Assembly: GCA_038057125.1 (NCBI GenBank) | Contig: JBBUDU010000001.1 | Location: forward strand, 997 to 64,996 | DNA from: Patescibacteria group bacterium | GTDB taxonomy: Bacteria; Patescibacteriota; Minisyncoccia; Phycocordibacterales; UBA1550 | Direction of reading: 5' to 3' | Length of the DNA stretch: 64,000 bases | In this document: in pieces, positions 13,198-34,948 of the stretch | Position numbering within the stretch: the first letter of the stretch is position 1 | How the letters are laid out: the number at the start of each line of letters is the position of its first letter | Made by a program: the position numbers and the translations under genes | Notes under the pieces: model-generated | What the model was told of the DNA's origin: nothing | The model's database searches: none | Seen by the model: the letters and a program-made list of their open reading frames with translations, nothing else

Positions 13198-13455
13198 ATG
13201 TATTACACCTACGTTATCGAGAACGACAAAGGTACATGTTATACTGGCAGCACGGAGGATCTACGGAAACGCTTGAGACAGCACAACGAAGGGCGGTCAA
13301 CGTGGACAAAAGGTAAAGGAGTGTGGAAGGTTATTTATTACGAGGCATGTCTTAATGAGCAAGATGCTCGGTCGAGAGAGATGTATTTAAAATCGGGGAT
13401 GGGTAAGCGCTATATAAAAAGTAGACTCAAGCGTTTTCTGTCTCTAACGGGATGA
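13198..13455 (+). CDS. Small stand-alone GIY-YIG nuclease-family protein
   Basis: YTYVIEN...CYTGSTEDLRKRLRQHN...SREMYLK matches the GIY-YIG core. Alternative upstream starts at 13153 and 13171. The stop overlaps the argS ATG. Confidence 0.65.
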   Translation: MYYTYVIENDKGTCYTGSTEDLRKRLRQHNEGRSTWTKGKGVWKVIYYEACLNEQDARSREMYLKSGMGKRYIKSRLKRFLSLTG

Positions 13456-15023
13456 AAGAGAAACTGGAAGCGACAGTGGCGGAGGCACTGGAAGCCATGG
13501 GCGTTCTTGTTGGCACAGTAAAAGTAGAGCGCCCCGCGGGCAACATGCACGGTGATTATTCGACTAATGCCGCGCTCGTGTATGGGAAAATAGCTGGCAT
13601 TTCACCGCGCGACTTTGCGGGAAAACTTGTCGAGAAAATTCTCGAAACTTCATCAGACTATATTGAAAAGATTGAAATTGCGGGCGCTGGATTTATAAAC
13701 TTTTTTCTCACGGATGCTACGTTCGAAGCTGCTGTTTACGAAAAAACACCATTTGTAAAAACGGGTGAAAAAATAAATATTGAATTCATTTCAACCAATC
13801 CAACCGGCGAGCTTCACATCGGCCATGGACGCTCGGCATTTTATGGTGATACTCTTGCGCGCGTTCTCACTTTTTCAGGTGCATCTGTGACTCGCGAATT
13901 TTATATAAATGATTCACGTGAGAGTAACCAGATTCGCGAGCTTGGCAAGACCGCACTGGGAAACGGGAAAGAGTACAAAACTCCGGAGCTCGTAGAAAAA
14001 ATGCGCGAACTCGATTTTTCCGGAATGACAGAAGAAGAAGCAGGTGGAAAACTCGCGAGCGCGGTACAAGCAAGCAATCGCGCGTTCATAGAAAAAAACA
14101 TCGGCGTGAAGTTTGATGTGTGGTTTTCTGAGGACAAGGAGCTTCGCGCGAGCGGCGCGAGTACCTCCATGGTCGAGCGTTTGAAGGGACAAGGATTTAC
14201 ATATGAAAAAGACGGAGCAGTGTGGCTTAAAACTTCAGAGTATGGCGACGATGAAGACCGCGTCGTTGTCCGCTCGGATTCTACGATGACATATTTTGTC
14301 GCAGATATCGCATACCACGACAAAAAATTTTCTCGCGGATTTCAAACCGTCATCGATGTGTGGGGGGCGGACCATCATGGGCATGTAAAAAGAATGCAGG
14401 CGGTTGGACGCATGCTTGGGTGGCATAAAACCTTAACAAACGCCGACCAACCCATTGTATTCATCGCGCAACTTGTGTCGCTCAAAGAAGATGGCATTTC
14501 TAAAAAGATGTCCAAGCGTGCAGGGAACATAATTCTGCTCCGTGACCTTGTGGAAGAAATTGGCATCGACACCGTGCGATGGTTTTTCAACGAAAAAGCG
14601 CTCTCGACACAAATGACATTTGACATGGCGCTCGCAGAAGAACAGTCGGAAAAGAACCCCGTTTTTTATGTGCAGTACGCGCACGCGCGCATCTCGTCAA
14701 TCATAGAAAAATGCAAAAGCCTGAAAGAAGGACATGCGATAGAATTCTCTGATTTGATTAAAGTTTCATCCGCGCGCGCCCTCGCGTCTAAAATCACCGA
14801 ATTTCCTGAGGTGGTCACAGGAGTCACTCGCGATTATGGCGTGCACTCGCTTGCGAGTTATGCAACAGCGCTTGCCACCGCGGCAAACGCCTATTATCGT
14901 GATGTGCGTGTGGCAGAAGGCGATACATTCAACCCTTCTGCGCTCGCGCTCGCCATTCGCGCAAAGGAAACTCTCGCCGACACACTCACTCTCCTCGGTA
15001 TTTCCGCGCCACAGCGGATGTAA
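13452..15023 (+). CDS. argS: Arginyl-tRNA synthetase
   Basis: HIGH motif (ELHIGHGRS). MSKRAG in the KMSKS position. C-terminal DALR-type anticodon-binding region ending in M. Confidence 0.9.
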   Translation: MKEKLEATVAEALEAMGVLVGTVKVERPAGNMHGDYSTNAALVYGKIAGISPRDFAGKLVEKILETSSDYIEKIEIAGAGFINFFLTDATFEAAVYEKTPFVKTGEKINIEFISTNPTGELHIGHGRSAFYGDTLARVLTFSGASVTREFYINDSRESNQIRELGKTALGNGKEYKTPELVEKMRELDFSGMTEEEAGGKLASAVQASNRAFIEKNIGVKFDVWFSEDKELRASGASTSMVERLKGQGFTYEKDGAVWLKTSEYGDDEDRVVVRSDSTMTYFVADIAYHDKKFSRGFQTVIDVWGADHHGHVKRMQAVGRMLGWHKTLTNADQPIVFIAQLVSLKEDGISKKMSKRAGNIILLRDLVEEIGIDTVRWFFNEKALSTQMTFDMALAEEQSEKNPVFYVQYAHARISSIIEKCKSLKEGHAIEFSDLIKVSSARALASKITEFPEVVTGVTRDYGVHSLASYATALATAANAYYRDVRVAEGDTFNPSALALAIRAKETLADTLTLLGISAPQRM

Positions 15024-17613: not shown

Positions 17614-17628
17614 GGCGGATTAATGTTA

Positions 17629-17670
17629 AAATAAACTCGCAATAGAACTTCCACCGCGAGTTTATTTTTT
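17629..17670 (+). terminator. Intrinsic terminator
   Basis: AAATAAACTCGC ... GCGAGTTTATTTTTT. Confidence 0.6.
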
Positions 17671-17673
17671 GGT

Positions 17674-19173: not shown

Positions 19174-19279
19174 GGATTACGGACCATGTGTTAATTGGTT
19201 GGGAATTATCTACAACCTTTCTGTATTCTATATTCCGACATGATACAATGAAAATGCATACTATATGAGGGAGAAAAAA

Positions 19280-19828: not shown

Positions 19829-19874
19829 GATAATTCTAAACTAGATGATCATATCTATAATAATAACTCCAGTA

Positions 19875-20312
19875 TACCTATTTTGTCCTATCGGTGTAAA
19901 TAGGTATAGTAGGAAAGTTGTGGGTAAGCGAAGGATGCGAGCGAGCCACTTGTGGTGGTTTGTAAATTTGTCGATTGCCCATGTATCCTGTCTACCTATT
20001 TTGTCCTATCGGTGTAAATAGGTATAGTAGGAAAGTTGTGGATAAGTGAAGGCGGGGATAAGGTGGTGTGGCTGAAGTGCTGTCTGAAGGTTTTTTGCGT
20101 GATTCTTTTTACCCTGTGTTTCTACTGACACTCTTCTTTTTTATGTACCTATTTGTTCCTATCGGAGTGAATAGGTACATAGGGGGGAATTAAGAAGAAT
20201 TAGATGTGGTAATTAAGATTAGATGTGGTTATGCGGGATCCTTCCTACCTTATGTTTCTACTGACACTCTTCTTTTTTATGTACCTATTTTGTCCTATCG
20301 GTGTAAATAGGT
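19875..20312. repeat. Four dispersed copies of a 30-nt hairpin core with pairwise-conserved flanks
   Basis: Core ACCTATTTTGTCCTATCGGTGTAAATAGGT at 19875-19904, 19994-20023 and 20283-20312. Variant ACCTATTTGTTCCTATCGGAGTGAATAGGT at 20147-20176. Copies 1 and 2 share a 29-nt 3' flank; copies 3 and 4 share a 36-nt 5' flank. Confidence 0.9.
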
Positions 20313-20582
20313 ACATAAAAGAAAAAAATAAAAAAAGAGGGGAATGAATGGACCCCGCCGCAAGCGGTGAGGAATTCCTCCGATTAAAATAAAAAAAGAG
20401 GGGATTTAAAATGGGTCAGATTGGGTGGGTGAGCAGGCTTCTCTCCCTCACTTGGACGTAGGGTTTCCAAGTTGGGGGATTTTGGCTTCGCCAAAATCCC
20501 CCATGCACTTGTCCACAGTTACCCGCGCCATATGGCGCAATTTTTCTTTTTACATGATACAATAAAAGCACATAGTATATTT

Positions 20583-23500
20583 ATGCGAAACATTTTCCAT
20601 CACTCTACTGCTTTTATAGCAAGGCATAAGCACCATCATCACTTTATTGTCGCTGTTTTGGCGCTCGTAGTTGCGGGCACTGGTGTATATATGTACCGAC
20701 ACGAGCTTGCACAGGCGGCGACATATACATTTACCCAGACAAGCTGGGCTGGGGGAGTTACGACCGCAACATCAACTCATACTTCCAATCAATCAAATTG
20801 GACACAATACTCTGCTACCTCAACAAATATTACAGCAGGAGCTGGCGGCGTGAGCTTGACATCGACAAGCAAAGTTGCGGGGGATGACGGAGTTGCCCTC
20901 TCCGCCCTCGCGACTCCCACTACTGCATCGCTGAATTCAGGGCCTCGGGGTATCACCACAAGCCCCGACGGCACTTCGGTGTATGCGAGGTCATACGACA
21001 CCATTAATATGTACTCCAGGAACACTAGCACCGGCGCCTTGACGGCGCTCGCTACCCCCACCATCGCGGCGGCGGGAGATCCTTTCGGCATCACCGTTTC
21101 CCCCGATGGCATCTCGGTGTACGCTGTGCTTGCTGGGAATGCGTCTGTCGCCATGTACTCCCGCGACACATCCACTGGCGCTTTGACTGCCCTCGGCACA
21201 CCAACTATTGCAACGGAGTCGGATCCCCTTGACATCACTATTTCCCCCGATGGAACATCAGTGTATACGGTGAACAACGCTTCTAGCACAATCTCCATGT
21301 ATTCCCGCGATACTTCCACTGGCGCCTTGACCGCCCTCGGCACCCCCACCATCGCGGCAGGGGATCCAACAGGCATTACCATCTCTCCCGACGGCACCTC
21401 GGTATATGTTGCGAATTACAGTGGAAACACCGTCTCTATGTATTCCCGCAACATGTCCACCGGCGCCCTCACCGCCCTCGCTACCCCCACCATCGCGGCA
21501 GGGTCATATCCATACGGTATCATCATAAGTGCTGACGGTATTTCAGTGTATGCGACGAACAATGGTGGAGACACCGTCTCCATGTACTCCAGAAACACTG
21601 GCACAGGCGCCTTGACCGCCCTCGCCACTCCGACTATCGCGACAGGGACGACACCTATAGGCCTTTTCATTTCACTTGACGGCACCTCGGTATATGTTGC
21701 GAACAACAGTGGAAACACCGTCTCTATGTACTCCAGGAACACTAGCACCGGCGCCTTGACGGCGCTCGCTACCCCCACCATCGCGGCAGGGACGAATCCA
21801 AGAGGCATTACCATCTCGCCCGACGGCACTTCGGTGTATGTGACGAACTACAACTCTGGCACCATCTCAATGTACTCCCGCAGTGCCTATGGTGGCGCGC
21901 TTGGTTTTGCGGCGGGGACATTTGCGAGTACAGAGGTTTCTTTTTGGGCGGGAGCTTCGTCGAGCGTGGGACTAGCACAAACCACAACCAACCTCAATGT
22001 TATACACCAGAGCGGAAATCTCTCCAAAATTACCACATCTGGGACAGTAAGCACGACCTCGGTTGGAGTCACTTATCCTAACGCCCTCATTTTTGGCACC
22101 GACGGCAATCTTTTCGTAGCGAACTCTGGAGGAAACACGATTCGAAAAGTCACCCCCGGAGGGACCGTCACTACTTTTGCAACAGTAGGCGCTGGCCCTA
22201 ACGGCCCTGCCTTTGACGCATCTGGCAATCTCTACACAGCAAACTACGACGATAACACCGTCTCCAAAATCACCCCCGCCGGCGCTGTTACCACTTTTGC
22301 AACAGTAGGCGCTGGCCCTAGATACCTCGCCTTTGACACCACCGGCAATCTCTATACGGCGAACTATTCCTCTAGTACAATCTCTAAAATTACCCCCGCT
22401 GGTGCCACCACCACTTTTGCAACAGTAGGCGCTGGCCCTTACAGCCTTGCTTTTGACGCATCTGGCAATCTCTACACAGCAAACTACGACGCTAACACCG
22501 TCTCCAAAATCACCCCCGCCGGCGCTGTTACCACTTTTGCAACAGGATTTAATTGTCCCAGTTCCTTTGCATTTGATACAGCAGGTACCCTGCTTGTCGG
22601 AAACTATTGCGATGGCGTTATCTCCAAAGTCACCACTGGAGGAGTGACTTCAACATTCGTGACAATAGAGACCAACCCCCGCGCCTCCACTTTTGATAAG
22701 GTGTACGCTTCCTCTGGCACATTTACCTCCGCGGTAATCAATACGGGTGTGGAGTCTTACTTCTCCACGCTTGCATATACAACGACTCTAAACGGTCAAA
22801 CGATTACGGTTGACGCCCGCGCTGGGAATACAGCAACTCCCGATGGCACATGGACTTCATGGCAGACAGGCATCGCAAGCGGTGGAAGCATTTCCGGACT
22901 TTCATACAATAGATACATTCAATACCGTGCGAACTTTTCTACTTCAGATACGGCAGTCACACCTACGCTCAACAGTGTGACCATCAACTACGGCCAGTAC
23001 GCTTTGAGCGGAGACCTTACTTCATCCAAGTATGATACAGAAGCCACAGCAAACCTGATTTCGAATGTTCTTTGGTCTGCATCCAGCACTTCTGCTTCTG
23101 AGACAGTAAGGTTTCAAGTACGATCGTCCTCAGCCGGCACCACATGGACTAACTGGTGCGGACCGGCAACCGCTTGCGACGGCACCGACTATTTTACCGT
23201 AAGCACCGGTGTGTCAGGTGGAATTGTTTCAGGTCACCCACTTCGCTCGGACAGTAATGACAGATTTTTACAATACAAAGCGTTCCTTGCTTCAGCCGGT
23301 GGTGCCACCCCAACACTCACATCGGCTACTGTACAGTATGTGGTAAACGCGCCGCCTGTGATTTCGAACATAACGGCATCACAGGGAAGCACAGGTGCCG
23401 TAACAGTTGGTTACGATTTAGCAGATTCAGATAATGCCATTGGGAACATCGTTGATGTTACCTTGCAATACTGTACGACAAACTGTTCTGCTGGTTCGGA

Positions 23501-26500
23501 AGTCTGGGCGGATGCTGTGACGGTGTCGGGGAGTGTCGGCACTGGAGTAGCTTTGGGGACAGCAAGAAGTATCTCGTGGACAGCTTCCACCGACTACGCG
23601 TCGCAATACAAATCCAACACGCAAAAAATCCGAATCATCGCAGACGATCGCGATGCGGCTAATAACCTTGGATATGGTACTTCTCCGACATTTACTTTAG
23701 ACACGACCGTTCCAGTTATTACCGTTTCTAAACTCGATTCATCAACAGGAGGGAATGCAGTCGGTACTATTTCCTTGACTTCAAACGACGACAGCACGCT
23801 TCAATATAGAATTTGTAATGATAATACATTTCCTTCTTCTGACACACAGGGGAACTCGTGCGCATTTACTACCCTTGCTGCAAGTCCGATTGCAACAACG
23901 ACTATTGCGTGGATTCCCACAGGCGCGCCATCTCACGAATTTGCATATCTTCAAGTCCGCGATGCATACGGTAATGTGACCGCGCAGACTCTCGTTGCTC
24001 CTGCGATGCCGGCAGATTTTTCTTATAATGATGTTTCCAACACTACGACTGGGGTATATCGTGAATTTTTATCATGGGTGCCATTTGTCGCCACCACTTC
24101 ATCTACTTTCGGTTCTTACAAGGTGTACCACTCACTCGATAACTTCGCGACCTCCACTCTTCTCGCAACCATCACCGATTCCTCAGTAAACTATTACCTT
24201 CACACTGTTACAACAGCGACAACTTCACTGCAGTACTACAGAGTGACATCAGTGAACGCTCTTGGAAACGTTTCGAACTTCACAGCCATCATTTCTGATA
24301 TTCCGGATGGAACAGGAGGAGTGGATACAACTCCGCCACACATTCCGATTGCTGGCATCGCCACACCAACAGTAGGAAATTCGTCAGCGAATATTACCTT
24401 TAGCACGTACACCGACACCTCTCTTTCAGTCGGCGAGCTTGCGACATCAACAGTGTTCTACGCTTCATACACAGGGGCTGTTCCTGCTTCGTGCCCAGGT
24501 ACTCCAAAGGTGTCTACGAATACCTACACGGTGAACCACAGCGTTTATCTTACTGGGCTTACACCGTCAACGCAGTATTACTATTGTGTCGTCGCAAGAG
24601 ATATTTCTGGCAATGTGAGCGCGGCAACGACAGCTGTCGGCGGAACATTCACCACCGTGAGCGGACCACTCATTACCAATGTCACCGAGCGCGAAATTAC
24701 CGACATCTCTGCGCTCATTTTTTGGAATACAAACACAAGCTCTGATTCAAAAGTATATTTTTCTGCCACATCGGCTGGGGTAAATGGCGCAACTCCGGTT
24801 AATGGATCTGTGGTTACTGTGGCCGGATCCGATGGCGCATACCAACACCAAATAGGGCTCACTGGTTTGAGCGCAGGACAGACATATTATTATAAAGTTA
24901 CTTCTACTGATACTGCTGGCACCCCCATCACCACGACGAACGACAACAATGGGCAGTACTATAGTTTTGTAACCCTTCGTGACACTACCCCGCCGACTGT
25001 TTCCGGCATTGCCACACCTGTACTCTCCTCAAATGCCGCGGTTATTATTTGGCAGACAAATGAACCTTCAACTACTCAAGTGTTGTGGGGAACCGCGTCT
25101 AGCACTTATACGCGCAATACTGTTATCGACACAACAAAATCTATTTACCACATTGTGACTTTGAGCAGTGGAACATTGGACACTGGATCAGTATCGCAAG
25201 TGCTTACACCTGAAACCACTTATTATTTTGTGGTGAGATCTGCCGATGATGCTGGGAACTTGACCACTTCATCGCAAAGCACGCTTACGACTCCGGCAAC
25301 AGGAAGTGTAACCATAACGACTATTAATGTAGTAAGTAGCGCAAGCTCTGGTTCGGATACAAAAGACACGACCGTTCCGATAATTTCTAATATAAAAGTA
25401 TCTGACATTACACCATTTGCCGCCGTGGTGAAGTTTGATACGGATGAGGATACTGTGGGGTTTGTCGAGTATGGTGCCGCTACTACATACGGCGAGACAG
25501 CGGGCGACAAAACCATGGCAAGATCTCACACCGTAAGACTTCGCGGTCTTACTCTCGGTACCGAATACCACATCAAGGCGACTGCGGTTGATAAGTCCGG
25601 CAATGCCGGCACATCCGGAGACCAAACATTCAAGACCACATTCCTTTCAGAAAACCTGAAAGACATCGCAAACATCGAGAACATTGAAGCCTTCCAGAAA
25701 GAAATTGAAGCCGCCATTGAATCAATTCTCCCATCACTCGTACCGCCGTTTGTTTCAAAGCCGCAGGTCTTGGACATCACGGAAAACTCTGCAACCATTA
25801 CATTCAAAACAAACATCAAAGCATTCCCTGTTGTCGTGTACGCGGACGATGGTTCATACGACGAAAAGAAAGACAATCCTTACACTGGTGAAATCTCGGA
25901 CACCGCTAAAAAATCAGCCGAACATAGTCTTAAGCTCACTGGTCTCAAGGGTAATACAAAGTACCATATTCAAGCTCGTGCATTTTCTCTTCCGAGAGTT
26001 ATCGGAAAGTCTGCCGATGTCACTTTCATTACAAAGGCATCAAAGATCGCCGGCTCTATAGTAGAACGCAAAAAGGATTCATTTACTGTAGTGTGGACGA
26101 CGGATCAGCCAACTTCTTCTATCGTTGAATTTAAGAATGTAAGGTCTGGCATCATAGGGCAGAAGACCAATGAAGCGCTTCGCACATCTCACTCTATGAA
26201 GATTGAGAACCTTCCTCCTGGCACTGCGTACATAGTAAACATTTCGGGAAAGACAGAACAGGGAAATATTGCCGAAGCCGGAAGCTCGATTTCCGTTACC
26301 ACATCGCGCGATGTTACACCGCCGGTGATAACAGGATTCAAAGTTGACAATGCGTTAATCCCGGGCCGAACCGACCGCATTCAAACCATCGTTTCGTGGA
26401 CTACAGACGAGCCTTCAAATTCTACCGCTTACTATGAGGAAGGTACTGGCACAAAAGGAGACACGAAAGAGCTCGCGAACAAGAACTCAGAACTCACTTC

Positions 26501-26702
26501 GTATGTCACCAACCACGCAATCATTCTCCCAAGTTTGAAGCCGGGCACCATCTATCGCCTAAAGGTTACTTCGAGCGACGACAGCGGAAATCTCGGTTCC
26601 TTTGGCCCGCGCACTATCATCACTCCTCAACAGACCGCATCCATTACCGACATTATCTTTAAGAACTTCGAAGATTCATTCAAATTCTTGAAGAAGATTT
26701 AA
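20583..26702 (+). CDS. Giant (~2040 aa) membrane-anchored surface protein with beta-propeller and FN3/PAP-N-like repeats
   Basis: Anchor FIVAVLALVVAGTGVYMY. About 8 repeats GITISPDGTSVYVANxxxNTVSMYSRNTSTGALTAL (YVTN/lactonase-like). About 5-6 NHL-like blades GPxxxAFDASGNLYTANYxxNTVSKITPAG. Seven to eight modules of the form TVxWxTxEPSxSxVxYG...HxVxLTGLxPxTxYxY. Start set at ATG 20583; the listed ORF begins at TTG 20472. Confidence 0.8.
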   Translation: MRNIFHHSTAFIARHKHHHHFIVAVLALVVAGTGVYMYRHELAQAATYTFTQTSWAGGVTTATSTHTSNQSNWTQYSATSTNITAGAGGVSLTSTSKVAGDDGVALSALATPTTASLNSGPRGITTSPDGTSVYARSYDTINMYSRNTSTGALTALATPTIAAAGDPFGITVSPDGISVYAVLAGNASVAMYSRDTSTGALTALGTPTIATESDPLDITISPDGTSVYTVNNASSTISMYSRDTSTGALTALGTPTIAAGDPTGITISPDGTSVYVANYSGNTVSMYSRNMSTGALTALATPTIAAGSYPYGIIISADGISVYATNNGGDTVSMYSRNTGTGALTALATPTIATGTTPIGLFISLDGTSVYVANNSGNTVSMYSRNTSTGALTALATPTIAAGTNPRGITISPDGTSVYVTNYNSGTISMYSRSAYGGALGFAAGTFASTEVSFWAGASSSVGLAQTTTNLNVIHQSGNLSKITTSGTVSTTSVGVTYPNALIFGTDGNLFVANSGGNTIRKVTPGGTVTTFATVGAGPNGPAFDASGNLYTANYDDNTVSKITPAGAVTTFATVGAGPRYLAFDTTGNLYTANYSSSTISKITPAGATTTFATVGAGPYSLAFDASGNLYTANYDANTVSKITPAGAVTTFATGFNCPSSFAFDTAGTLLVGNYCDGVISKVTTGGVTSTFVTIETNPRASTFDKVYASSGTFTSAVINTGVESYFSTLAYTTTLNGQTITVDARAGNTATPDGTWTSWQTGIASGGSISGLSYNRYIQYRANFSTSDTAVTPTLNSVTINYGQYALSGDLTSSKYDTEATANLISNVLWSASSTSASETVRFQVRSSSAGTTWTNWCGPATACDGTDYFTVSTGVSGGIVSGHPLRSDSNDRFLQYKAFLASAGGATPTLTSATVQYVVNAPPVISNITASQGSTGAVTVGYDLADSDNAIGNIVDVTLQYCTTNCSAGSEVWADAVTVSGSVGTGVALGTARSISWTASTDYASQYKSNTQKIRIIADDRDAANNLGYGTSPTFTLDTTVPVITVSKLDSSTGGNAVGTISLTSNDDSTLQYRICNDNTFPSSDTQGNSCAFTTLAASPIATTTIAWIPTGAPSHEFAYLQVRDAYGNVTAQTLVAPAMPADFSYNDVSNTTTGVYREFLSWVPFVATTSSTFGSYKVYHSLDNFATSTLLATITDSSVNYYLHTVTTATTSLQYYRVTSVNALGNVSNFTAIISDIPDGTGGVDTTPPHIPIAGIATPTVGNSSANITFSTYTDTSLSVGELATSTVFYASYTGAVPASCPGTPKVSTNTYTVNHSVYLTGLTPSTQYYYCVVARDISGNVSAATTAVGGTFTTVSGPLITNVTEREITDISALIFWNTNTSSDSKVYFSATSAGVNGATPVNGSVVTVAGSDGAYQHQIGLTGLSAGQTYYYKVTSTDTAGTPITTTNDNNGQYYSFVTLRDTTPPTVSGIATPVLSSNAAVIIWQTNEPSTTQVLWGTASSTYTRNTVIDTTKSIYHIVTLSSGTLDTGSVSQVLTPETTYYFVVRSADDAGNLTTSSQSTLTTPATGSVTITTINVVSSASSGSDTKDTTVPIISNIKVSDITPFAAVVKFDTDEDTVGFVEYGAATTYGETAGDKTMARSHTVRLRGLTLGTEYHIKATAVDKSGNAGTSGDQTFKTTFLSENLKDIANIENIEAFQKEIEAAIESILPSLVPPFVSKPQVLDITENSATITFKTNIKAFPVVVYADDGSYDEKKDNPYTGEISDTAKKSAEHSLKLTGLKGNTKYHIQARAFSLPRVIGKSADVTFITKASKIAGSIVERKKDSFTVVWTTDQPTSSIVEFKNVRSGIIGQKTNEALRTSHSMKIENLPPGTAYIVNISGKTEQGNIAEAGSSISVTTSRDVTPPVITGFKVDNALIPGRTDRIQTIVSWTTDEPSNSTAYYEEGTGTKGDTKELANKNSELTSYVTNHAIILPSLKPGTIYRLKVTSSDDSGNLGSFGPRTIITPQQTASITDIIFKNFEDSFKFLKKI

Positions 26703-26733
26703 AAAAAGGGGTGGTAAATAAAGACAGACAGCG

Positions 26734-26775
26734 CTCACTAAAATAAACCGCCATATGGCGGTTTATTTTAGTGAG
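26734..26775 (+). terminator. Terminator-like perfect hairpin after the giant gene
   Basis: CTCACTAAAATAAACCGCCATATGGCGGTTTATTTTAGTGAG. Confidence 0.6.
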
Positions 26776-26793
26776 TTAGTCAAGACAGTACGC

Positions 26794-26837
26794 ACTGTAC
26801 ACGTATAAAAACCTATAGTACTATATACGTGTACAGT
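26794..26837. repeat. Palindromic element abutting the start codon of PaaX-like paralog 2
   Basis: Arms ACTGTACACGTATA / TATACGTGTACAGT around AAAACCTATAGTACTA. About 70 percent identical, in register, to the element at 27387-27436. Confidence 0.85.
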
Positions 26838-27374
26838 ATGAAAAAGTATCAACGCGATGAAATAAAAGAAATAATCCTCTCAACCCTCCTTGTTGCGGGA
26901 GTGATCGCTATCGCTGTTACTATGCCGAATGCGGTGCAACTTTTCAAATACTTCAAACCCAAGAACACATATGATCGCACGCGCATAAAGCAGTCAGTCT
27001 ATCGTCTGGAAAAACAAGGATTTATAAAAAGAAAAGATGCAGGGTATGTTCTTACGGCGAGTGGGACAAAGAAGGCAATCTATTACAAAATAGAATCTAT
27101 GAAGATTGTTCGTCAAAAGGAATGGGATGGTAAATGGCGCATAGTGATGTTTGATGTTCCGGAAGAAAGGAAAATGGCTCGACGCGCAATACACAACGCG
27201 CTCAAAGAACTGGGTTGCGTACAATATCAGAAGTCTGTTTTTGTAACACCTTTTCCGTGCAAAAACGAGGTTGATTTTATAGGAGATTATTTTGGGGTAC
27301 GGGGGAATATTCGAATTATTATTGCAAGTGAGATTGAAGGAGGGAAAATCCTCCGAAATGCCTTTTGCTTGTAA
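26838..27374 (+). CDS. PaaX-like protein (wHTH plus Cas2-like fold), paralog 2
   Basis: WDGKWRIVMFDVPEERKMARRAIHNALKELGCVQYQKSVFVTPF. Collinear similarity to 19280-19828 over its whole length. ATG 26838 preferred over GTG 26829. Confidence 0.55.
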   Translation: MKKYQRDEIKEIILSTLLVAGVIAIAVTMPNAVQLFKYFKPKNTYDRTRIKQSVYRLEKQGFIKRKDAGYVLTASGTKKAIYYKIESMKIVRQKEWDGKWRIVMFDVPEERKMARRAIHNALKELGCVQYQKSVFVTPFPCKNEVDFIGDYFGVRGNIRIIIASEIEGGKILRNAFCL

Positions 27375-27523: not shown

Positions 27524-30500
27524 ATGGCTGATAAAGAAAAAGATACAAAAAATTTGGCGACAGAGGCAGTTCAAGAACCTCAATCGAAAAAACTTTCGGA
27601 TATTTCGATGCGCGAGGAAGAAACTCTTGCGCGCTGGCAGTCCGCGCACATTTTTGAAAAGTCGCTTGACCAAACGAAAGGAGGCGAGGAGTTTATTTTT
27701 TACGACGGTCCGCCATTTGCGACCGGTCTTCCACACTATGGGCACTTTCTTCCAAACTTGATGAAAGATGTGATTCCACGCTACCAGACGATGCGCGGAC
27801 GATATGTTCGACGTGTGTGGGGTTGGGATTGCCACGGGCTCCCAATTGAAAATTTAATTGAAAAAGAGCTCGGGCTCGGGCACAAAAAAGACATAGAGGA
27901 ATATGGTCTTGAAAAGTTTAACGAAGCCTGTCGCGAGTCAGTGTATCGCTATGATACTGAATGGAAAAAAATGATTCCGCGTATTGGGCGATGGGTAGAT
28001 ATGGAACATTCGTACAGTACGATGAATGCAAACTACACCGAGAGCGTGTGGTGGGCTTTTAAAACACTATACGAAAAAGGTCTGGTGTATCAAGGGTTCA
28101 AGTCGATGCACATTTGCCCAAGATGCGAGACGACACTTTCAAACAACGAAATCGCGCTTGGATACAAAGATATTACTGATATTTCGGTAACGATAAAATT
28201 TGAATTGGTTGATGAACCCGGTACATTTATTTTAGCTTGGACGACAACCCCATGGACATTACCCGGCAATGTCGCGCTTGCGGTAAACCATGAGGAGGAG
28301 TATGTGAAAGTTTCCGTTGGAGATGAAAAATATATTTTAGCAAATACGCGCGCGGGAATCGTGTTTGCCGGCAAAGTATATACTGTCCTCGAGCAGATTA
28401 ATGGCGCTGACCTTGTTGGTAAACCATACAAACCTATTTTTGATTATTATTCGCAAGACAATACGATTAAAAATCATAAAAACGGTTGGAAAATATATGC
28501 GGGGGATTTTGTAACGATGGATAGTGGTACCGGCGTGGTGCATATCGCGCCAGCATTCGGCGAGGACGACATGGCGCTTGGTGTCCGTGAAAATTTGCCG
28601 TTTGTGCAACATGTTGCAATGGACGGCACGATGAAAAGTGAAGTGCGTGATTTCGCAGGTGCTTCGGTAAAGCCAAAAGGAGAAAAAAATGACAGCCATC
28701 AGGTGACAGACATCTTGATTATTAAACACCTCGCGCATGCAGGAGCGCTTTTTTCAAAAGAAAAAATAATTCACGCATATCCGCACTGCTGGCGTTGCGA
28801 TACACCACTTTTAAATTACGCGGCAGAGTCATGGTTTGTAAAAGTGCCTGACTTAAAAGACAAACTCCTCGCAGAAAATGCAAAGACATCATGGGTACCA
28901 AAAAATATGCGTGATGGTCGTTTTGGTAAGTGGCTCGAAGGCGCGCGCGATTGGGCTATTTCTCGTTCGCGTTTTTGGGGCGCGCCTATTCCCGTATGGC
29001 AGTGTGAAAAATGCAATGAGCGCAAAGTTTTCGGCTCGCGAGAGGAGCTTTCTGAACACACAAAAAAATCCGGTAATAGATATATTGCAATGCGACACGG
29101 CGAGGCCGAGAGCAATGCGCGCGGTATTGTGAGCTCAAAGATTGACGGAAGCACTTCGTACGGCTTAACGGAAAAGGGACGTCTGTCAGCAGAAAAAGCA
29201 GGCCTCGAGCTTTCAGGAGACAAGATTGACATCATAATCACTTCGCCTTTTGCGCGTACCAAGCAAACTGCAGAAATTGTCGCCAAGGCCATTGGTCTTG
29301 ATGCGCAAAAGATTATTGTCGATGAGCGCGTCAAAGAAATCGATACTGGTATCTTTGACGGAAAACCAATTGCCTTATATCGCGAACACTTCGCTTCTAT
29401 AGAGGAAAAATTTACTAAGCGTCCGGAAAGTGGCGAAAACTTGCTTGATGTAAAGCGTCGTGTAATGTCACTTATATCTGAACTTGAAAACGAACATAAA
29501 GGGAAGACTATTCTGATTGTAACGCACGAATATCCGATATGGATGCTTGCTTCCGGGTCACGTGGTGCTACTGTAAATGAATCTGTCGCGATGCGCGGAG
29601 ACAAAGAAGATTTTCTCGCAACGAGCGGCGTTCTTGATATAAAGTACGCGCCATTTCCGCACAATGCGGATTTTGAATTTGATCTCCATTTGCCGTACAT
29701 AGATACGGTTGAAGTGTCGTGTAAATGCGGAGGGCATATGTCACGCGTGCCATATGTTTTTGACTGCTGGTTTGAGTCCGGCTCGATGCCGTACGCACAG
29801 TTTCATTACCCGTTTGAAAACAAAGAGCTTTTTGAAAAGAATTTTCCAGCAAACTTTATTGCCGAGGGTGTCGACCAAACGCGCGGATGGTTTTATTCTC
29901 TAATGGTTCTTTCCGTTGGACTTTTTGGCAAGGCGCCGTTTAAGAATGTTATCGTGAACGGAATGGTACTCGCGGAGGACGGACAAAAAATGTCGAAGAG
30001 CCGAAAGAATTATCCAGACCCGTGGGATATTTTGAATCAATACGGCGCTGATGCTGTGCGGTATTATTTGCTTTCATCACCAATTGTGCATGCCGAAGAC
30101 CTCGCGTTTCTTCCGCGTGGCGTTGATGAGGTGGTGAAGAAATTTATTATGCGTTTATCCAATGTACTCTCATTTTATGAGCTTTACCGCGTAGAAGAAG
30201 ACACTACAATACATACTCGCGCGCCTAATGTTCTTGACCAGTGGATACTCGCGCGCCTGAAAGAAGTTACTTGTGAAGAAACCGCGGCACTCGACGCGTA
30301 CGAGATCGACCGTGCGGTGAAGCCTCTCAGTCTTTTTGTGGACGACCTATCGACATGGTATCTTCGTCGTTCGCGCGATCGATTTAAGTCTGAAGATGCG
30401 AATGACCGTGCTACCGCTCTCGCGACCACTCGCATTGTGCTTCTTGAGTTTTCAAAACTTATCGCTCCGGTAATGCCGTTTCTCGCGGACCATATTTATT

Positions 30501-31069
30501 TGCGCGCAGGAGGAAAAAAAGAGAGCGTGCACCTTGAAAAATGGAATGAAATGTCTTCAGTAATGTGTGCGGACCATGAAGTCGCAGTCCTTGAAGGAAT
30601 GGCAGAAGCACGCCGTACCGTGTCACTTGCTCTTGAGGCGCGCGCCAAGGCGGGAATAAAAGTTCGTCAACCACTCGCGCGGCTCACGCTTAAAAATGTA
30701 GCGCTCAAAGGCAAGGACGAGTATATTGCACTCATCATAGATGAGGTGAATGTAAAAGAAATTTCGTTTGATGCTACGATTTCCCTAGACGTTATTCTCG
30801 ACACAAATATCACACCCGACTTAAAACGCGAAGGGCAGTTTCGCGATTTGGTACGAACCGTGCAAGGACTCCGAAAAGAAATGAAACTCATGCGAACGGA
30901 CGATATTGTTTTGAAGATAAAAACAACGACAATTGGGAAGGAGCTTGTGGAGACATTTGCTCTGGAATTAAAAAGAGTAGCGTTTATTCGCGAGATTCTG
31001 TTTACAGAAGTAAGCGGAGAAACCGTCGACATTGACGGAGTCACCTTTGTTTTTTTGATAGAGAAGTAG
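27524..31069 (+). CDS. ileS: Isoleucyl-tRNA synthetase (type 2) with an inserted histidine-phosphatase domain
   Basis: PPFATGLPHYGH, KMSKSRKN and the WCISR-like WAISRSRFWG. Insert of ~200 aa at nt 29072-29680 carries RHGEAESN, SPFARTKQTAE and ILIVTHEYPI. Confidence 0.9.
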   Translation: MADKEKDTKNLATEAVQEPQSKKLSDISMREEETLARWQSAHIFEKSLDQTKGGEEFIFYDGPPFATGLPHYGHFLPNLMKDVIPRYQTMRGRYVRRVWGWDCHGLPIENLIEKELGLGHKKDIEEYGLEKFNEACRESVYRYDTEWKKMIPRIGRWVDMEHSYSTMNANYTESVWWAFKTLYEKGLVYQGFKSMHICPRCETTLSNNEIALGYKDITDISVTIKFELVDEPGTFILAWTTTPWTLPGNVALAVNHEEEYVKVSVGDEKYILANTRAGIVFAGKVYTVLEQINGADLVGKPYKPIFDYYSQDNTIKNHKNGWKIYAGDFVTMDSGTGVVHIAPAFGEDDMALGVRENLPFVQHVAMDGTMKSEVRDFAGASVKPKGEKNDSHQVTDILIIKHLAHAGALFSKEKIIHAYPHCWRCDTPLLNYAAESWFVKVPDLKDKLLAENAKTSWVPKNMRDGRFGKWLEGARDWAISRSRFWGAPIPVWQCEKCNERKVFGSREELSEHTKKSGNRYIAMRHGEAESNARGIVSSKIDGSTSYGLTEKGRLSAEKAGLELSGDKIDIIITSPFARTKQTAEIVAKAIGLDAQKIIVDERVKEIDTGIFDGKPIALYREHFASIEEKFTKRPESGENLLDVKRRVMSLISELENEHKGKTILIVTHEYPIWMLASGSRGATVNESVAMRGDKEDFLATSGVLDIKYAPFPHNADFEFDLHLPYIDTVEVSCKCGGHMSRVPYVFDCWFESGSMPYAQFHYPFENKELFEKNFPANFIAEGVDQTRGWFYSLMVLSVGLFGKAPFKNVIVNGMVLAEDGQKMSKSRKNYPDPWDILNQYGADAVRYYLLSSPIVHAEDLAFLPRGVDEVVKKFIMRLSNVLSFYELYRVEEDTTIHTRAPNVLDQWILARLKEVTCEETAALDAYEIDRAVKPLSLFVDDLSTWYLRRSRDRFKSEDANDRATALATTRIVLLEFSKLIAPVMPFLADHIYLRAGGKKESVHLEKWNEMSSVMCADHEVAVLEGMAEARRTVSLALEARAKAGIKVRQPLARLTLKNVALKGKDEYIALIIDEVNVKEISFDATISLDVILDTNITPDLKREGQFRDLVRTVQGLRKEMKLMRTDDIVLKIKTTTIGKELVETFALELKRVAFIREILFTEVSGETVDIDGVTFVFLIEK

Positions 31070-31072
31070 TGT

Positions 31073-31660
31073 ATGTCACATCATATTTATCACACGCGTG
31101 GCGTCATATTGAGTAGTCGGCCTGCAGGCGAATCAAATCGTTTTTATAAAATTTTTACAGAAGAATTGGGGCTCGTGGGGGCCACGGCGCAGTCGGTGCG
31201 CGAAGGGAAGTCAAAGCTCCGCTATACTCTCCAAGATTTTTCCATCGTTACGATTGATTTTGTACGCGGAAAAGAAGTGTGGCGAATTGTTAGTGCTGGT
31301 GTATGGCGCCCGCTTGAAACCATAAAAAAGGACTCCATTCGCATAAAGCTCCTCGCGGGTTTTTATTCTCTTTTGTTGAGACTCCTTCACGGCGAAGGTC
31401 GTGACCAAGAACTTTTTGCAGAAATTATCGCTGTGGTGGATTTTCTGGAAAAACAAATAATTCCTCAAGAACTTACGCTTTCCTTTGAAACCCTTACTGC
31501 GTTTCGTGTGCTCGTGCATTTGGGTTACGCGGATGCCAAGGGTTTCGACAATTTCTTGAGCCCTGCCCCGTATTCTTTGGATCTTTTGCTCCAGTTTGAA
31601 AAGATTCGCTCAAAAGTGCTTACGCAAATCAACGATTCGCTGAGTGCTTCACACCTTTAG
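31073..31660 (+). CDS. recO: DNA repair protein RecO (short form)
   Basis: N-terminal OB-fold pattern HTRGVILSSRPAGESNRFYKIFTEELGLVGATAQSVR...LQDFS. 195 aa. Confidence 0.5.
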   Translation: MSHHIYHTRGVILSSRPAGESNRFYKIFTEELGLVGATAQSVREGKSKLRYTLQDFSIVTIDFVRGKEVWRIVSAGVWRPLETIKKDSIRIKLLAGFYSLLLRLLHGEGRDQELFAEIIAVVDFLEKQIIPQELTLSFETLTAFRVLVHLGYADAKGFDNFLSPAPYSLDLLLQFEKIRSKVLTQINDSLSASHL

Positions 31661-31678: not shown

Positions 31679-33589
31679 ATGTCAGACGATGTAAAAGATA
31701 AAATTGCAGAGCTCGAAAAGGAGCTTTATTCGAAAGATTTTAAAACACATGTAGCAGAGGATATTGTGCCGCAAAAAAAAGCACCACAAGCTTCTGTGTG
31801 GGGCGATGTGGGTGTGGTAACTTCATTTTTAGATAAAAGACTAAGCTCTGAGGAAAAACATCATATAATGAAAAAATTTGTTAAAATCTCCGCAAGTTTT
31901 TTCGTTATAGCGGCAATTGTTTCAGGGTTTATTTGGTGGCGTGGCGCGAATATCATTTCGGGAGAAAATATTGCGATTGATATCGCTACACCTTTTACTG
32001 TTGCTGGTGGGGATTCGTTTGAAACAAAATTTACAATAACCAATAACAACAAAGTTCCGGTTGATATGGCAACACTTTTTGTGGAATATCCTGCCGGTTT
32101 TTACTCTGTCGGAGACAATACCGAGCTTCCACGCATCTCAAAAGACCTAGGAAGTATCGCATTAGGTCAATCTGTTACTATGAGTGTAAGTACCCTTTTG
32201 TATGGTGAGAACAACACAAATAAAGAAGTATCCCTGACACTCGAGTATCGCATGGCGGGTTCAAATGCAGTACTTAAAAAATCAAAAACGTATTTGATAA
32301 AAATCGCATCATCACCGGTTAATGTAAAATTACAGATGCTCAAAGAGGTTAGTTCTGGGCAAGAGATCAACCTTATCGTAGACATTGCTTCAAACAGCAA
32401 GGACCCAATAAGTACACTTGTTATTTCCGCAGCGTACCCTGCTGGCTTTAGTTTTCTAAGCGCCGACCCCGCACCTTCGTACTCCACGAATACATGGAGT
32501 TTTGCAGGTCTTTCTCCTCAAGAAAAACGCACCATAAAAATTCGCGGAGTTATTGAAGGACAAGAAAATGAGGAAAAGGTGACAAAGATTTCTCTTGGAA
32601 TCCCGAGCACGAAAGACGAGCGTCTTATTGGTGTTGTGTACAATGCAACCACCGAATCCAGTATCATCATGAAGTCTGTTTTGGGAATTGATCTCGTCGT
32701 AAATAACAACCGCGTACAGAACAATGTTGCATCCCTTGGTAAAGGCGTGAAGGTTGAGGTATTTTGGCAGAATAACAATCCTACCAGAGTTTCTGATGCG
32801 GTAATCGAAGTTAAATTAAAAGGGGTGATACTTGACCGGTATTCCATATATGCATCAGGCGGCGGTTTTTATCGGTCGGTGGACAACACTATTGTGTGGG
32901 ACAAAACAGGTGCCAGTGAGCTGGGGTCCCTAGATCCTGGCGCACGCGGTGCCGTAAGTTTTAGTTTTTCTCCAATTTCACTCGGTGTTGATGCATCTCG
33001 CATTGTAAAAAATCCGCAAATGATTTTTGAAGTGCGCGCAACCGCTCGGCGTATTTCAGAGGCGAGCGCTTCCGAAGACATCACGACATTTGCAACACGC
33101 AGTGTAAAGTTTGAAACAGATTTGCGTGTTCTTGCTCGCGGACTCTATTTTTCTGGACCATTCGAAAACACTGGTCCGGTTCCGCCACAGGCAGACAGAG
33201 AAACAACATACACAATATTGCTGTCAATACGCAATTCATCAAACAACGTTTCAAATGCGCTGGCAAAAACAACATTGCCTATTTATGTGAAGTGGCTCGG
33301 TAGGGTTTCTCCGGACGGCGAGGGTATTACCTATAATGAAAGTACTAGAGAGATAACATGGAATGTTGGGCGCATCCAAACTGGTGGAACACGCGACGCA
33401 GCATTTCAGATTTCATTTTTGCCAAGCGTGAGCCAGATTAACAGTGCTCCGTTCCTAATGGGAGATACATTTTTGACAGGGACTGATGATTTCACAAAGA
33501 CCGAGATAAGTGACAAAAAGGCGGCTTTGACGACTCATATTTCATCAGATCCGCAATTTAGCCCAAATGACGCAAATGTGGTAAATTAG
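31679..33589 (+). CDS. Single-pass membrane protein with a large beta-rich extracytoplasmic region, unknown function
   Basis: 636-aa ORF. Charged N-terminus, then TM FVKISASFFVIAAIVSGFIWW, then repeated Ig-like-looking segments. Confidence 0.5.
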   Translation: MSDDVKDKIAELEKELYSKDFKTHVAEDIVPQKKAPQASVWGDVGVVTSFLDKRLSSEEKHHIMKKFVKISASFFVIAAIVSGFIWWRGANIISGENIAIDIATPFTVAGGDSFETKFTITNNNKVPVDMATLFVEYPAGFYSVGDNTELPRISKDLGSIALGQSVTMSVSTLLYGENNTNKEVSLTLEYRMAGSNAVLKKSKTYLIKIASSPVNVKLQMLKEVSSGQEINLIVDIASNSKDPISTLVISAAYPAGFSFLSADPAPSYSTNTWSFAGLSPQEKRTIKIRGVIEGQENEEKVTKISLGIPSTKDERLIGVVYNATTESSIIMKSVLGIDLVVNNNRVQNNVASLGKGVKVEVFWQNNNPTRVSDAVIEVKLKGVILDRYSIYASGGGFYRSVDNTIVWDKTGASELGSLDPGARGAVSFSFSPISLGVDASRIVKNPQMIFEVRATARRISEASASEDITTFATRSVKFETDLRVLARGLYFSGPFENTGPVPPQADRETTYTILLSIRNSSNNVSNALAKTTLPIYVKWLGRVSPDGEGITYNESTREITWNVGRIQTGGTRDAAFQISFLPSVSQINSAPFLMGDTFLTGTDDFTKTEISDKKAALTTHISSDPQFSPNDANVVN

Positions 33590-33604: not shown

Positions 33605-34948
33605 ATGGAAAAGAAACCATACCCTAAAGACATGATGGAAAAACTTGTGTCGCTTTGTAAGCGGAGAGGCTTTATTTATCAAGGGTCCGAAATCTATGGT
33701 GGGCTCGCGGGAACGTACGACTACGGACCACTTGGTACCGCTCTAAAAAACAATATCAAGAATCTCTGGTGGAAAATGTTTGTTGATGGTCGTGACGACA
33801 TGTATGGCATGGACGCGTCTATTCTCATGAACCCGCGCGTATGGGAAACAACAGGGCATGTTGCCGGTTTTGCCGACCCGCTTGCCGAGTGCACAAAATG
33901 CAAAAAGCGTTTTCGTGCAGACCAACTCGAGGATAGAAAAAAGTGTCCCGCCTGCGGCGGAGCGCTTGGCGCGGAACGACAATTTAACATGATGCTCTCG
34001 ACGCGCGTTGGGGCGATGGAAGACTCTTCATCTATCTCGTATCTTCGACCAGAGACGGCGCAAGGAATGTTTGTGAATTTTAAAAATGTAATGGACTCGT
34101 TTCATCCAAAGATACCGTTTGGCATTGGGCAAGTCGGAAAAGCGTTTAGGAACGAAATCACACCGCGCGATTTTATTTTTCGTTTGCGCGAGCTCGAGCA
34201 GATGGAGGTGGAATACTTTGTAAAAGAAAGTGACTGGGAGCGTGCATTTGAAGAGTGGCGTGTGGCAATGGGAAACTGGATTGATGTTGTAGGTATTGAC
34301 CGCGCGCGTACGCACGAGGTGGAGATAGAAGACCGCGCGCACTATTCAAAACGCACCATTGATTTTGAGTTTGACTACCCATTCGGACAAAAAGAATTAT
34401 ACGGTCTCGCATACCGCACCGACTTTGACCTCTCTCGTCATTCCGAGGCAAGCAAAGTGGATTTGTCATATCGCGACGAGGAAGCTGGAGAAAGGTTCAT
34501 CCCGCACGTTATCGAGCCGTCGTTTGGTCTTGATCGCACGATGCTCGCAGTGCTTCTATCTGCGTACACAGAAGACACAATGGGTGCAAAAGAAGAAAGC
34601 GAACCGCGAGTATTCTTGAAATTTCACCCTCGTGTCGCTCCCATCAAAGCCGCCGTATCACCGCTTCTTAAAAACAAACCGGAACTCGTCGCAAAAGCAC
34701 GCGAGATATATGTAATGCTTAAAAAAGAAATTCCACAAATAATGTGGGACGACAACGGCAATGTCGGCAAGCGCTACAGACGACAGGATGAAATTGGCAC
34801 ACCGTTTTGTATTGTGATTGATTTTGATACTTTGGGCGAAACTCCGGAGCACAAAGATACTGTAACTGTCCGCGACCGCGACACGGGCGAGCAAGAGCGC
34901 CTAGTAATTAGTGAATTGACAAATTACTTAAAAAACGCTATAAAGTAG
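33605..34948 (+). CDS. glyQS: Glycyl-tRNA synthetase (dimeric class II, GlyQS type)
   Basis: N-terminus KRRGFIYQGSEIYGGLAGTYDYGPLG, plus class II motif regions. Confidence 0.9.
   Translation: MEKKPYPKDMMEKLVSLCKRRGFIYQGSEIYGGLAGTYDYGPLGTALKNNIKNLWWKMFVDGRDDMYGMDASILMNPRVWETTGHVAGFADPLAECTKCKKRFRADQLEDRKKCPACGGALGAERQFNMMLSTRVGAMEDSSSISYLRPETAQGMFVNFKNVMDSFHPKIPFGIGQVGKAFRNEITPRDFIFRLRELEQMEVEYFVKESDWERAFEEWRVAMGNWIDVVGIDRARTHEVEIEDRAHYSKRTIDFEFDYPFGQKELYGLAYRTDFDLSRHSEASKVDLSYRDEEAGERFIPHVIEPSFGLDRTMLAVLLSAYTEDTMGAKEESEPRVFLKFHPRVAPIKAAVSPLLKNKPELVAKAREIYVMLKKEIPQIMWDDNGNVGKRYRRQDEIGTPFCIVIDFDTLGETPEHKDTVTVRDRDTGEQERLVISELTNYLKNAIK

Follow-up and report, generated by a model that had tools for sequence, protein, structure and literature searches.

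A histidine phosphatase domain nested within the type-2 isoleucyl-tRNA synthetase of Patescibacteria

Introduction

Aminoacyl-tRNA synthetases are among the best-studied enzymes, and additional catalytic domains within their catalytic domain are essentially confined to editing domains. The ileS gene of a Patescibacteria group bacterium raises the question of what an unrelated second enzyme might be doing in such a place. In the stretch of DNA analysed here, the 64 000 nucleotides from position 997 to 64 996 of the forward strand of contig JBBUDU010000001.1 (GenBank assembly GCA_038057125.1; hereafter the window), the isoleucyl-tRNA synthetase (IleRS) encoded by this gene accommodates a domain of the histidine phosphatase superfamily within a single reading frame. 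The host and the guest are each ordinary; the unusual features are that the guest is nested in the host, that a clade conserves this nesting and that the association exists in a series of alternative states.

Known systems offer partial likenesses. The CP1 editing domain of class Ia synthetases likewise adds a second hydrolytic site to the Rossmann-fold domain, inserted into one of its connective peptides and enclosed by a zinc knuckle, but it is universal in IleRS, ValRS and LeuRS (the isoleucyl-, valyl- and leucyl-tRNA synthetases) and hydrolyses mis-acylated products, whereas the nested phosphatase is clade-restricted and belongs to an unrelated superfamily. The curated family NF040702 (ileS_w_GNAT) provides a precedent for an IleRS with an extra enzymatic domain, although the window protein is not a member (340 bits versus a cutoff of 1999) and carries a phosphatase rather than a GNAT domain. 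Full-text searches of the literature returned no description of an IleRS with a nested histidine phosphatase, and recent papers on the structure and evolution of IleRS2, PMC10485003 among them, confine themselves to the zinc fingers and the ARD2 'INS' insertion. The sequences themselves are not new, since automatic Pfam annotation already displays the architecture in public databases; what appears to be new is its interpretation and its evolutionary context.

The host synthetase

The ileS product scores 863.6 bits against the NCBIfam ileS equivalog TIGR00392 (cutoff 621.4), although the insert splits the match, and Pfam recognizes tRNA-synt_1 in two stretches together with Anticodon_1 and DUF5915 (residues 1070–1181). 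The closest solved structures in phmmer searches are those of Priestia megaterium IleRS2 (PmIleRS2; 8c8u) and the Thermus thermophilus enzyme (1ile), and the top solved relatives are IleRS2 and eukaryotic IleRS. The C-terminal organization is that of type 2, with DUF5915/ARD3 present and without a C-terminal zinc-binding domain. Both solved type-2 enzymes share with the window IleRS the HUP core, CP1, two zinc knuckles, the anticodon-binding domain and the DUF5915 C-terminus, and they are collinear with it on either side of the insert (E ~1e-224); they differ in having ∼25 residues in the second-knuckle loop, where the window IleRS has a 198-residue phosphatase.

Column conservation of host and insert was assessed over 40 full-length homologues with identities down to 57%. 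In addition to the signature motifs listed in Table 1, the CP1 and first-knuckle columns C198, C201, T240–T242, W244, H340, D349, C422 and C425 are invariant. [quoted passage not shown] An identity with the mupirocin-resistant enzymes MupA and MupB was considered and rejected, the scores against NF000257 and NF000258 (735 and 724 bits, respectively) lying below the cutoffs of 1900 bits.

The insertion site

In the phmmer alignment with 8c8u, residues 29–513 of the window protein match residues 12–478 and residues 712–1110 match residues 479–876. The insertion of ∼198 residues is therefore clean, as the alignment resumes at residue 479 directly after residue 478 and no host residue is missing. 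It occupies the surface loop of the second zinc knuckle, with the conserved WGxPIP and DxWFESGS motifs on either side, in a connective-peptide region that is named CP2 or CP3 depending on the paper. A preliminary description of this DNA had correctly placed WQCEKC (Table 1) and the DLHLPYID segment (from nucleotide 29681) on either side of the insert and had supposed that they are normally separated by a few dozen residues, which agrees with the ∼25 residues between the CxxC knuckle and the 'ELHKPYVDD' segment of 8c8u. The same description regarded the phosphatase as nested in the catalytic core. The domain does lie in frame within the catalytic domain, but the HUP core of PmIleRS2 comprises residues 40–168 and 513–632 (Brkic et al., PMC10485003) and the insertion point corresponds to PmIleRS2 residues 478/479, so that the insert is outside this core, in the second-knuckle loop.

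The G+C content is continuous across the insert, with no composition shift suggestive of a recent mobile insertion, and the flanking repeats, two short ones attributable to chance, likewise give no sign of such an event. In one related IleRS (P0085) all four cysteines of the second knuckle have been lost (PIWKSADGSE ... MTDSHGE) and the phosphatase is kept at the same site; the insert is therefore independent of zinc coordination. The mechanical list of open reading frames also contains a 294-residue antisense frame overlapping the insert (28816–29700, − strand), which is most likely to be spurious.

The phosphatase domain

The histidine-phosphatase assignment made in the preliminary description is borne out by Pfam: against a threshold of 21.7 bits, His_Phos_1 (PF00300) scores 115.5 bits in the whole protein (E value in Table 1) and 119.9 bits (E = 1.4e-34) with the insert alone. 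In alignments with solved structures, the RHG motif, the second arginine, the glutamate and the second histidine of the insert are in register with those of PspA (4ij5) and PhoE (1h2e, 1ebb), and H525 pairs with PspA H9, which is the mutated residue of 4ij6. The catalytic set of branch 1 is thus complete, as had been claimed, but its acid had been misplaced. The glutamate of 'ESGENL' (E638) belongs to a conserved family motif and is not the catalytic acid; this role probably falls to E605, which is aligned with the glutamates of 'RLREIHLG' in PhoE and 'RIIEIDHG' in PspA. Residues R524, H525, N531, R578, E605, E638, R646 and H668 are invariant among the 40 homologues (≥57% identity), and R524, H525, R578, E605 and H668 are also strongly conserved in the broader set of copies. 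The mean column identity of the insert (0.63) lies between those of the anticodon-binding domain (0.67) and the C-terminal domain (0.57), from which we conclude that its pace of evolution is roughly that of the peripheral IleRS domains.

An AlphaFold2 model of the insert alone has a predicted local distance difference test score (pLDDT) of 95.3 and a predicted template-modelling score (pTM) of 0.92. Foldseek matches it with a probability of 1.00 and template-modelling scores of 0.76–0.80 to 4ij5, 6s2q, 4qih and 1h2e, and ranks the small phosphatases (PspA, the mycobacterial phosphatase GpgP and hydrolases, the riboflavin-pathway HFP and PhoE) above the dPGM mutases. The full-length model, built from the 40-sequence alignment, is of much lower quality (pLDDT 71.5, pTM 0.43, with a pLDDT below 50 in the HUP core).

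The motifs of the insert (RHGEAESN and E-I-D-x-G-x-F-D-G) are of the phosphatase type and not of the mutase type. On this ground, together with the lower Foldseek rank and a dPGM_arch score of 92.8 bits versus 225, an identity with the glycolytic mutase dPGM (NF038349, TIGR01258) was rejected. The scores against the equivalogs of PspA (76.7 bits, cutoff 350), the α-ribazole phosphatase CobC (73.8 bits, cutoff 162.9) and SixA (32.7 bits, cutoff 74.5) dismissed these assignments as well. The insert shares its fold and the R-H...R...E...H set with PspA (4ij5), PhoE/YhfR (1h2e, 1ebb), the glucosyl-3-phosphoglycerate phosphatase Rv2419c (4qih), the riboflavin HFP (9mmh) and CobC, but it is just 21–28% identical to these small phosphatases, which are free-standing rather than nested. 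It also has a glutamate after the second histidine (THE). Glycine is usual at this position in the histidine phosphatase family. Among NCBIfam models, the second-best match of the insert alone, behind dPGM_arch, is the bifunctional RNase H/acid phosphatase of the Rv2228c type (NF005567; 87 bits, cutoff 326), and one such enzyme (P0399) appeared among the distant relatives. This enzyme resembles the window protein in joining a branch-1 histidine phosphatase to a nucleic-acid enzyme, but the fusion is end to end and the partner is a different one. By its sequence signatures, we classify the insert as a distinct phosphatase-type subfamily of branch 1 of the histidine phosphatase superfamily, outside any named NCBIfam equivalog, and the nested enzyme is complete and apparently active.

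Distribution and authenticity

The architecture recurs in other Patescibacteria IleRS, as the preliminary description anticipated. In a collection of 5.8 billion proteins, all of the 120 best relatives (99–57% identity) carry both PF00133 and PF00300; they derive from Yonathbacteria, Lloydbacteria, Parcubacteria, Minisyncoccia and Paceibacterota and from NCBI, JGI, ENA and Logan sources. With one genome taken per GTDB species, at least 285 species-representative Patescibacteria genomes encode a relative. The order N-terminal core, insert, C-terminal core is found at one and the same site in 80 of 80 examined loci, among whose titles Taylor-, Nomura-, Zambryski-, Giovannoni-, Adler- and Magasanikbacteria are named.

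The occurrence of the identical protein on three contigs, together with an architecture that recurs in over 120 clusters and in no fewer than 285 species genomes, excludes a chimeric assembly. We accordingly give next to no credence to an artefact, whether chimeric assembly or a frameshifted neighbour, or to a catalytically inert spacer domain, against which the continuous frame, the same junctions in 80 of 80 species loci and the invariant catalytic residues all speak. Two apparently split IleRS genes were also discounted. The apparent split in locus L065 reflects a gap in the scaffold, written as a run of N, and the one in L081 (3940–6828) consists of two gene calls produced by an in-frame TGA at the conserved glycine of CxCGG. 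Under code 25 (UGA = Gly) the latter gene encodes one intact IleRS of 963 residues, which suggests, on the basis of a single codon, a genome of the Gracilibacteria/SR1 type.

Free, fused and repeated copies

The preliminary description also held that the phosphatase is a domain insertion and not a neighbouring gene. This is right for the window, where the frame is continuous, but in related lineages the phosphatase is a gene lying directly upstream of ileS. An exhaustive phmmer search of 1.84 billion representatives with the insert gave 1284 matches at E ≤ 1e-10; among the best 150 of them, 104 lie inside IleRS and 46, mostly short free proteins or fragments, have no IleRS part. Five of the six free relatives that were checked for context sit directly upstream of ileS, abutting it, overlapping its start or, in L086, ∼400 bp from it. 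The closest free homologue of the insert is a separate gene between argS, which encodes arginyl-tRNA synthetase (ArgRS), and ileS, in lineages with an insert-less IleRS. Where ileS stands beside a free phosphatase gene the insert is absent and the knuckle loop contains only 13–30 residues. The order is argS-hisPhos-ileS in L086, where argS and the phosphatase gene are 3 bp apart, and pyrH-like, argS, a ∼200-residue gene, hisPhos, ileS, a ∼165-residue gene and recO in L081 and L082. The IleRS proteins of this arrangement are 36–57% identical to the window IleRS, and L081 appears to read UGA as glycine; the free-gene arrangement therefore spans deep Patescibacteria lineages. The ∼200-residue gene between argS and the phosphatase gene (L081:2744-3352, L082:4682-5281) is conserved and has no Pfam match.

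In rare relatives the phosphatase is fused end to end to other enzymes. Three clusters of ArgRS (P0258, P0271 and P0272; loci L089–L091), two of which are only 49% identical to each other, have a C-terminal His_Phos_1 domain. In L089 and L090 the ArgRS::phosphatase fusion is followed by ileS; in L091 recO follows it directly and ileS is gone from the otherwise conserved cluster. A further fusion joins His_Phos_1 to TsaC, the threonylcarbamoyl-AMP synthase of t6A formation (P0161, locus L088), which scores above the TIGR00057 cutoff and lies in an unrelated gene neighbourhood. No tsaC gene occurs in 1.17 Mb of sequence around ileS loci, and simple adjacency therefore does not explain the TsaC fusion.

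Several IleRS proteins contain two to four phosphatase copies (P0151, P0162, P0209, P0210, P0213, P0230, P0238 and P0266), arranged as tandem arrays at the site used in the window (site A) and at two or three other sites. Site B follows FDCWFESGSMPYAQ (around residues 760–771), site C is located between the catalytic and anticodon-binding domains (around residues 890–900) and one further copy was found after residue ∼441. The R-H-N-R-E-H signature, in which the glutamate scored is E638 and not E605, is retained in almost every copy. Other cargo is accepted too. In the related IleRS P0235, His_Phos_1 is accompanied by a GNAT domain at site B, and the CP1 region contains an IS200-type Y1 transposase domain in the same frame; P0237 has, besides the phosphatase, a P-loop kinase-like domain (AAA_18) at site B. 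Neither kind of enzymatic cargo could be assigned to a specific class: the P-loop domain matched APS kinase, shikimate kinase and Pnkp1 only weakly and without specificity (E ~0.02–0.05), and the GNAT domain resembles uncharacterized ElaA/SACOL1063 proteins.

No free phosphatase gene was found near a nested-type ileS in the examined ileS loci. Because in related lineages the phosphatase stands alone as a gene between argS and ileS or forms a fusion with TsaC or with the C-terminus of ArgRS, the nested domain is best explained as a captured operon neighbour. The simplest reading of these sequences is that this neighbour moved into ileS once and was vertically inherited afterwards; a neighbour-joining tree of the phosphatase copies is too star-like to settle whether the nested forms have a single origin.

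Gene neighbourhood

Synteny was counted over 81 sequences (the 80 loci and the window). Genomes of the nested type have the cluster order argS, ileS with the nested phosphatase, recO, a gene for a 636-residue DUF11 protein and glyS, which encodes glycyl-tRNA synthetase (GlyRS). The argS gene is upstream of ileS in 46 of 81 sequences, within 100 bp of it in roughly half of these; recO follows ileS in 60 of 81 and glyS is present in 46 of 81. The DUF11-containing protein, encoded in the window at 31679–33589 between recO and glyS, has homologues at the same position in 60 of 81 sequences and is thus a conserved cluster member.

The window departs from this pattern in having ∼12 kb of other genes between argS and ileS. 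These genes (15628–27374) encode a nucleotide pyrophosphatase/phosphodiesterase-like protein (15628–17613), a sulfatase (17674–19173), a 2076-residue repeat protein with lactonase-type β-propellers and Fn3/purple-acid-phosphatase-N domains (20472–26702) and a 181-residue PaaX/Cas2-like protein (26829–27374). The coordinates of the features discussed are collected in Table 1.

Table 1. Features of ileS, its nested phosphatase and the conserved neighbours in the window.
Feature	Position (nt)	Strand	Evidence
argS (ArgRS), usual upstream neighbour of ileS in the clade	13452..15023	+	Pfam Arg_tRNA_synt_N, tRNA-synt_1d, DALR_1
ileS, complete type-2 IleRS, 1181 residues, host of the phosphatase	27524..31069	+	Single uninterrupted open reading frame; TIGR00392; Pfam
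HYGH (HIGH signature motif, residues 71–74)	27734..27745	+	Invariant in 40 homologues
First zinc knuckle (CPRC, residues 198–201; CWRC, residues 422–425) around the CP1 editing domain, with TTTPWT (residues 240–245)	28115..28798	+	Invariant columns
WQCEKC, N-terminal CxxC half of the second zinc knuckle, directly before the insertion	28997..29014	+	C494, C497 kept in ≥90% of homologues
Inserted segment (residues 514–711), histidine-phosphatase domain with short linkers	29063..29656	+	Alignment gap versus 8c8u; AlphaFold; Foldseek
Pfam His_Phos_1 (PF00300) match (residues 522–685), between the two tRNA-synt_1 stretches	29087..29578	+	E = 3.2e-33
RHG (R524, nucleophile H525, G526)	29093..29101	+	R and H invariant in nested, free and fused copies
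R578, phosphate-binding arginine, SPFxRTxxTA motif	29255..29257	+	Invariant
E605, probable catalytic acid (ERVKEIDTG)	29336..29338	+	Invariant in 40 full-length homologues
H668, second catalytic histidine (VTHEYP)	29525..29527	+	Invariant
CKC, C-terminal CxC half of the second zinc knuckle, past the insertion	29720..29728	+	C733, C735 kept in ≥90% of homologues
KMSKS signature loop (residues 822–826)	29987..30001	+	K822, K825 invariant; M823, S824 in ≥90%
recO, conserved downstream neighbour of ileS	31073..31660	+	Pfam RecO_N
glyS (class-II GlyRS), end of the argS-ileS-recO-x-glyS cluster	33605..34948	+	Pfam tRNA-synt_2b, HGTP_anticodon

Possible roles of the nested phosphatase

The reading that we favour, as a good possibility that falls a little short of being probable, is that the domain works as a phosphomonoesterase and is coupled to tRNA enzymes that form adenylates. 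It would constitute an additional active site that operates independently while anchored next to the synthetic site, and its role would be tied to the chemistry common to IleRS, ArgRS and TsaC, which convert ATP to an acyl-AMP and pyrophosphate (PPi) and then to AMP, all in the service of tRNA. The target would be an adenosine-linked phosphomonoester that is made at, or competes for, the adenylate/A76 pocket; candidate substrates are AMP, a 2'- or 3'-phosphorylated adenosine nucleotide and a phosphorylated 3'-terminal A76 of tRNA. Tethering would provide local clearance at a 1:1 stoichiometry. This coupling to adenylate chemistry is suggested by the Rosetta-stone pattern, by the TsaC fusion, which adjacency does not explain, and by the repeated gains within IleRS that retain catalysis. 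Several observations weigh against it. None of the results points to one particular substrate, and the full-length model is too poor to orient the phosphatase pocket relative to the synthetic or editing site. Adjacency by itself is weak evidence, since the whole cluster (smpB, infC, argS, ileS, recO and glyS) is conserved and includes functionally unrelated genes. In L091 the phosphatase is kept with ArgRS where ileS is absent, so that IleRS is not needed in cis; the GNAT, P-loop and Y1 transposase cargo suggests that the IleRS loops merely tolerate insertions; the conserved columns are identical in nested and free copies, so that no adaptation specific to nesting is visible; and the TsaC fusion is known from one contig. 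A related proposal, which we regard as doubtful, is that the nested phosphatase is a true third catalytic site, coupled to aminoacylation as CP1 editing is, and that this coupling has been repeatedly selected in Patescibacteria. Such a site might remove a blocking phosphate from the 3' end of the tRNA or clear a phosphorylated adenosine by-product or inhibitor from the synthetic site, and the repeated selection would be seen in the nested copies at several sites, the tandem arrays and the ArgRS and TsaC fusions.

The main rival, to which we allow a substantial minority share of our confidence, holds that the domain is a passenger: an ordinary housekeeping or metabolic phosphatase with no biochemical tie to aminoacylation that was caught in an insertion-tolerant surface loop and works independently, the fusion only ensuring that it is co-expressed and inherited in a streamlined genome. 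In its free form the gene is packed into a dense cluster whose genes overlap or are separated by 1–40 bp, the ArgRS fusions are explicable by plain loss of a stop codon and the nearest characterized relatives are metabolic phosphatases. The acceptance of GNAT, P-loop and transposase-like domains in the same loops, the lack of conserved positions peculiar to the nested copies and the persistence of the phosphatase in L091 without an adjoining ileS, cited above, count in its favour as well. Intragenic nesting, however, takes more than the loss of a stop codon; nesting has occurred at several sites and in tandem arrays, always in IleRS and with the catalytic residues in almost every copy, and, among the 150 closest representatives, IleRS shares the role of host with ArgRS and TsaC only, both of which are tRNA-linked enzymes that convert ATP to AMP and PPi.

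Two narrower functions were also considered. The phosphatase might heal tRNA 3' ends, stripping A76 of a 2'- or 3'-phosphate, of a monoester derived from a 2',3'-cyclic phosphate or of a (pyro)phosphate added by a toxin and so permitting charging. This overlaps with one of the candidate substrates of the adenylate-coupled reading but is treated separately as its specific tRNA-end version; we consider it unlikely. The E. coli CCA-adding enzyme has an HD-domain phosphatase that has been proposed to act in 3'-end repair, and toxSAS toxins pyrophosphorylate tRNA CCA ends. Two of the hosts are class-I synthetases that acylate the 2'-OH of A76, and P0237 pairs the phosphatase with a P-loop kinase-like domain, as in RNA end-healing enzymes, although its match to Pnkp1 is not significant (E = 0.055). 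On the other hand, we know of no histidine phosphatase superfamily member that uses RNA ends as substrates; the nearest structures are those of enzymes acting on small molecules, the CCA end is not handled by TsaC and nothing accounts for a need for repair in tRNAIle or tRNAArg alone. The idea that the CCA-adding enzymes of Patescibacteria lack a healing phosphatase was dropped, as the preprint consulted states only that they are canonical class-II enzymes and gives it no support. Still less likely, in our estimate, is self-protection in cis, in which the domain would inactivate a phosphorylated synthetase inhibitor or undo an inhibitory phosphorylation of the kind that HipA-type kinases place on other aminoacyl-tRNA synthetases. 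The loop cargo (acetyltransferase, P-loop kinase-like and phosphatase domains) is typical of enzymes that modify small molecules, and Parcubacteria have been reported to carry MccH-type resistance genes against antibiotics that mimic adenylates (PMC7157772). Sites A, B and C lie to either side of the KMSKS loop along the sequence, which would suit such a role. Against it, a kinase and a phosphatase in one protein, as in P0237, would oppose each other in drug inactivation, and the TsaC fusion does not fit; we know of no phosphorylated IleRS inhibitor and of no kinase directed at IleRS.

Significance

A whole bacterial clade thus has an essential IleRS that bears a second, apparently active enzyme of an unrelated superfamily. 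Its annotation conceals this: the NCBI record of the identical protein (MEK7148311.1) is labelled 'class I tRNA ligase family protein [Patescibacteria group bacterium]', and 'class I tRNA ligase family protein' is currently the entire name of these proteins. Natural variants display the states of the association, namely a free gene, an end-to-end fusion, a nested domain, multi-copy arrays and loops with other cargo. Coupling of the phosphatase to aminoacylation would mean that translation has a quality-control or repair step not recognized before. Were it a passenger instead, the locus would be a clean natural case of an operon neighbour nesting in an essential enzyme and would mark insertion-tolerant loops of IleRS that may be useful for engineering.

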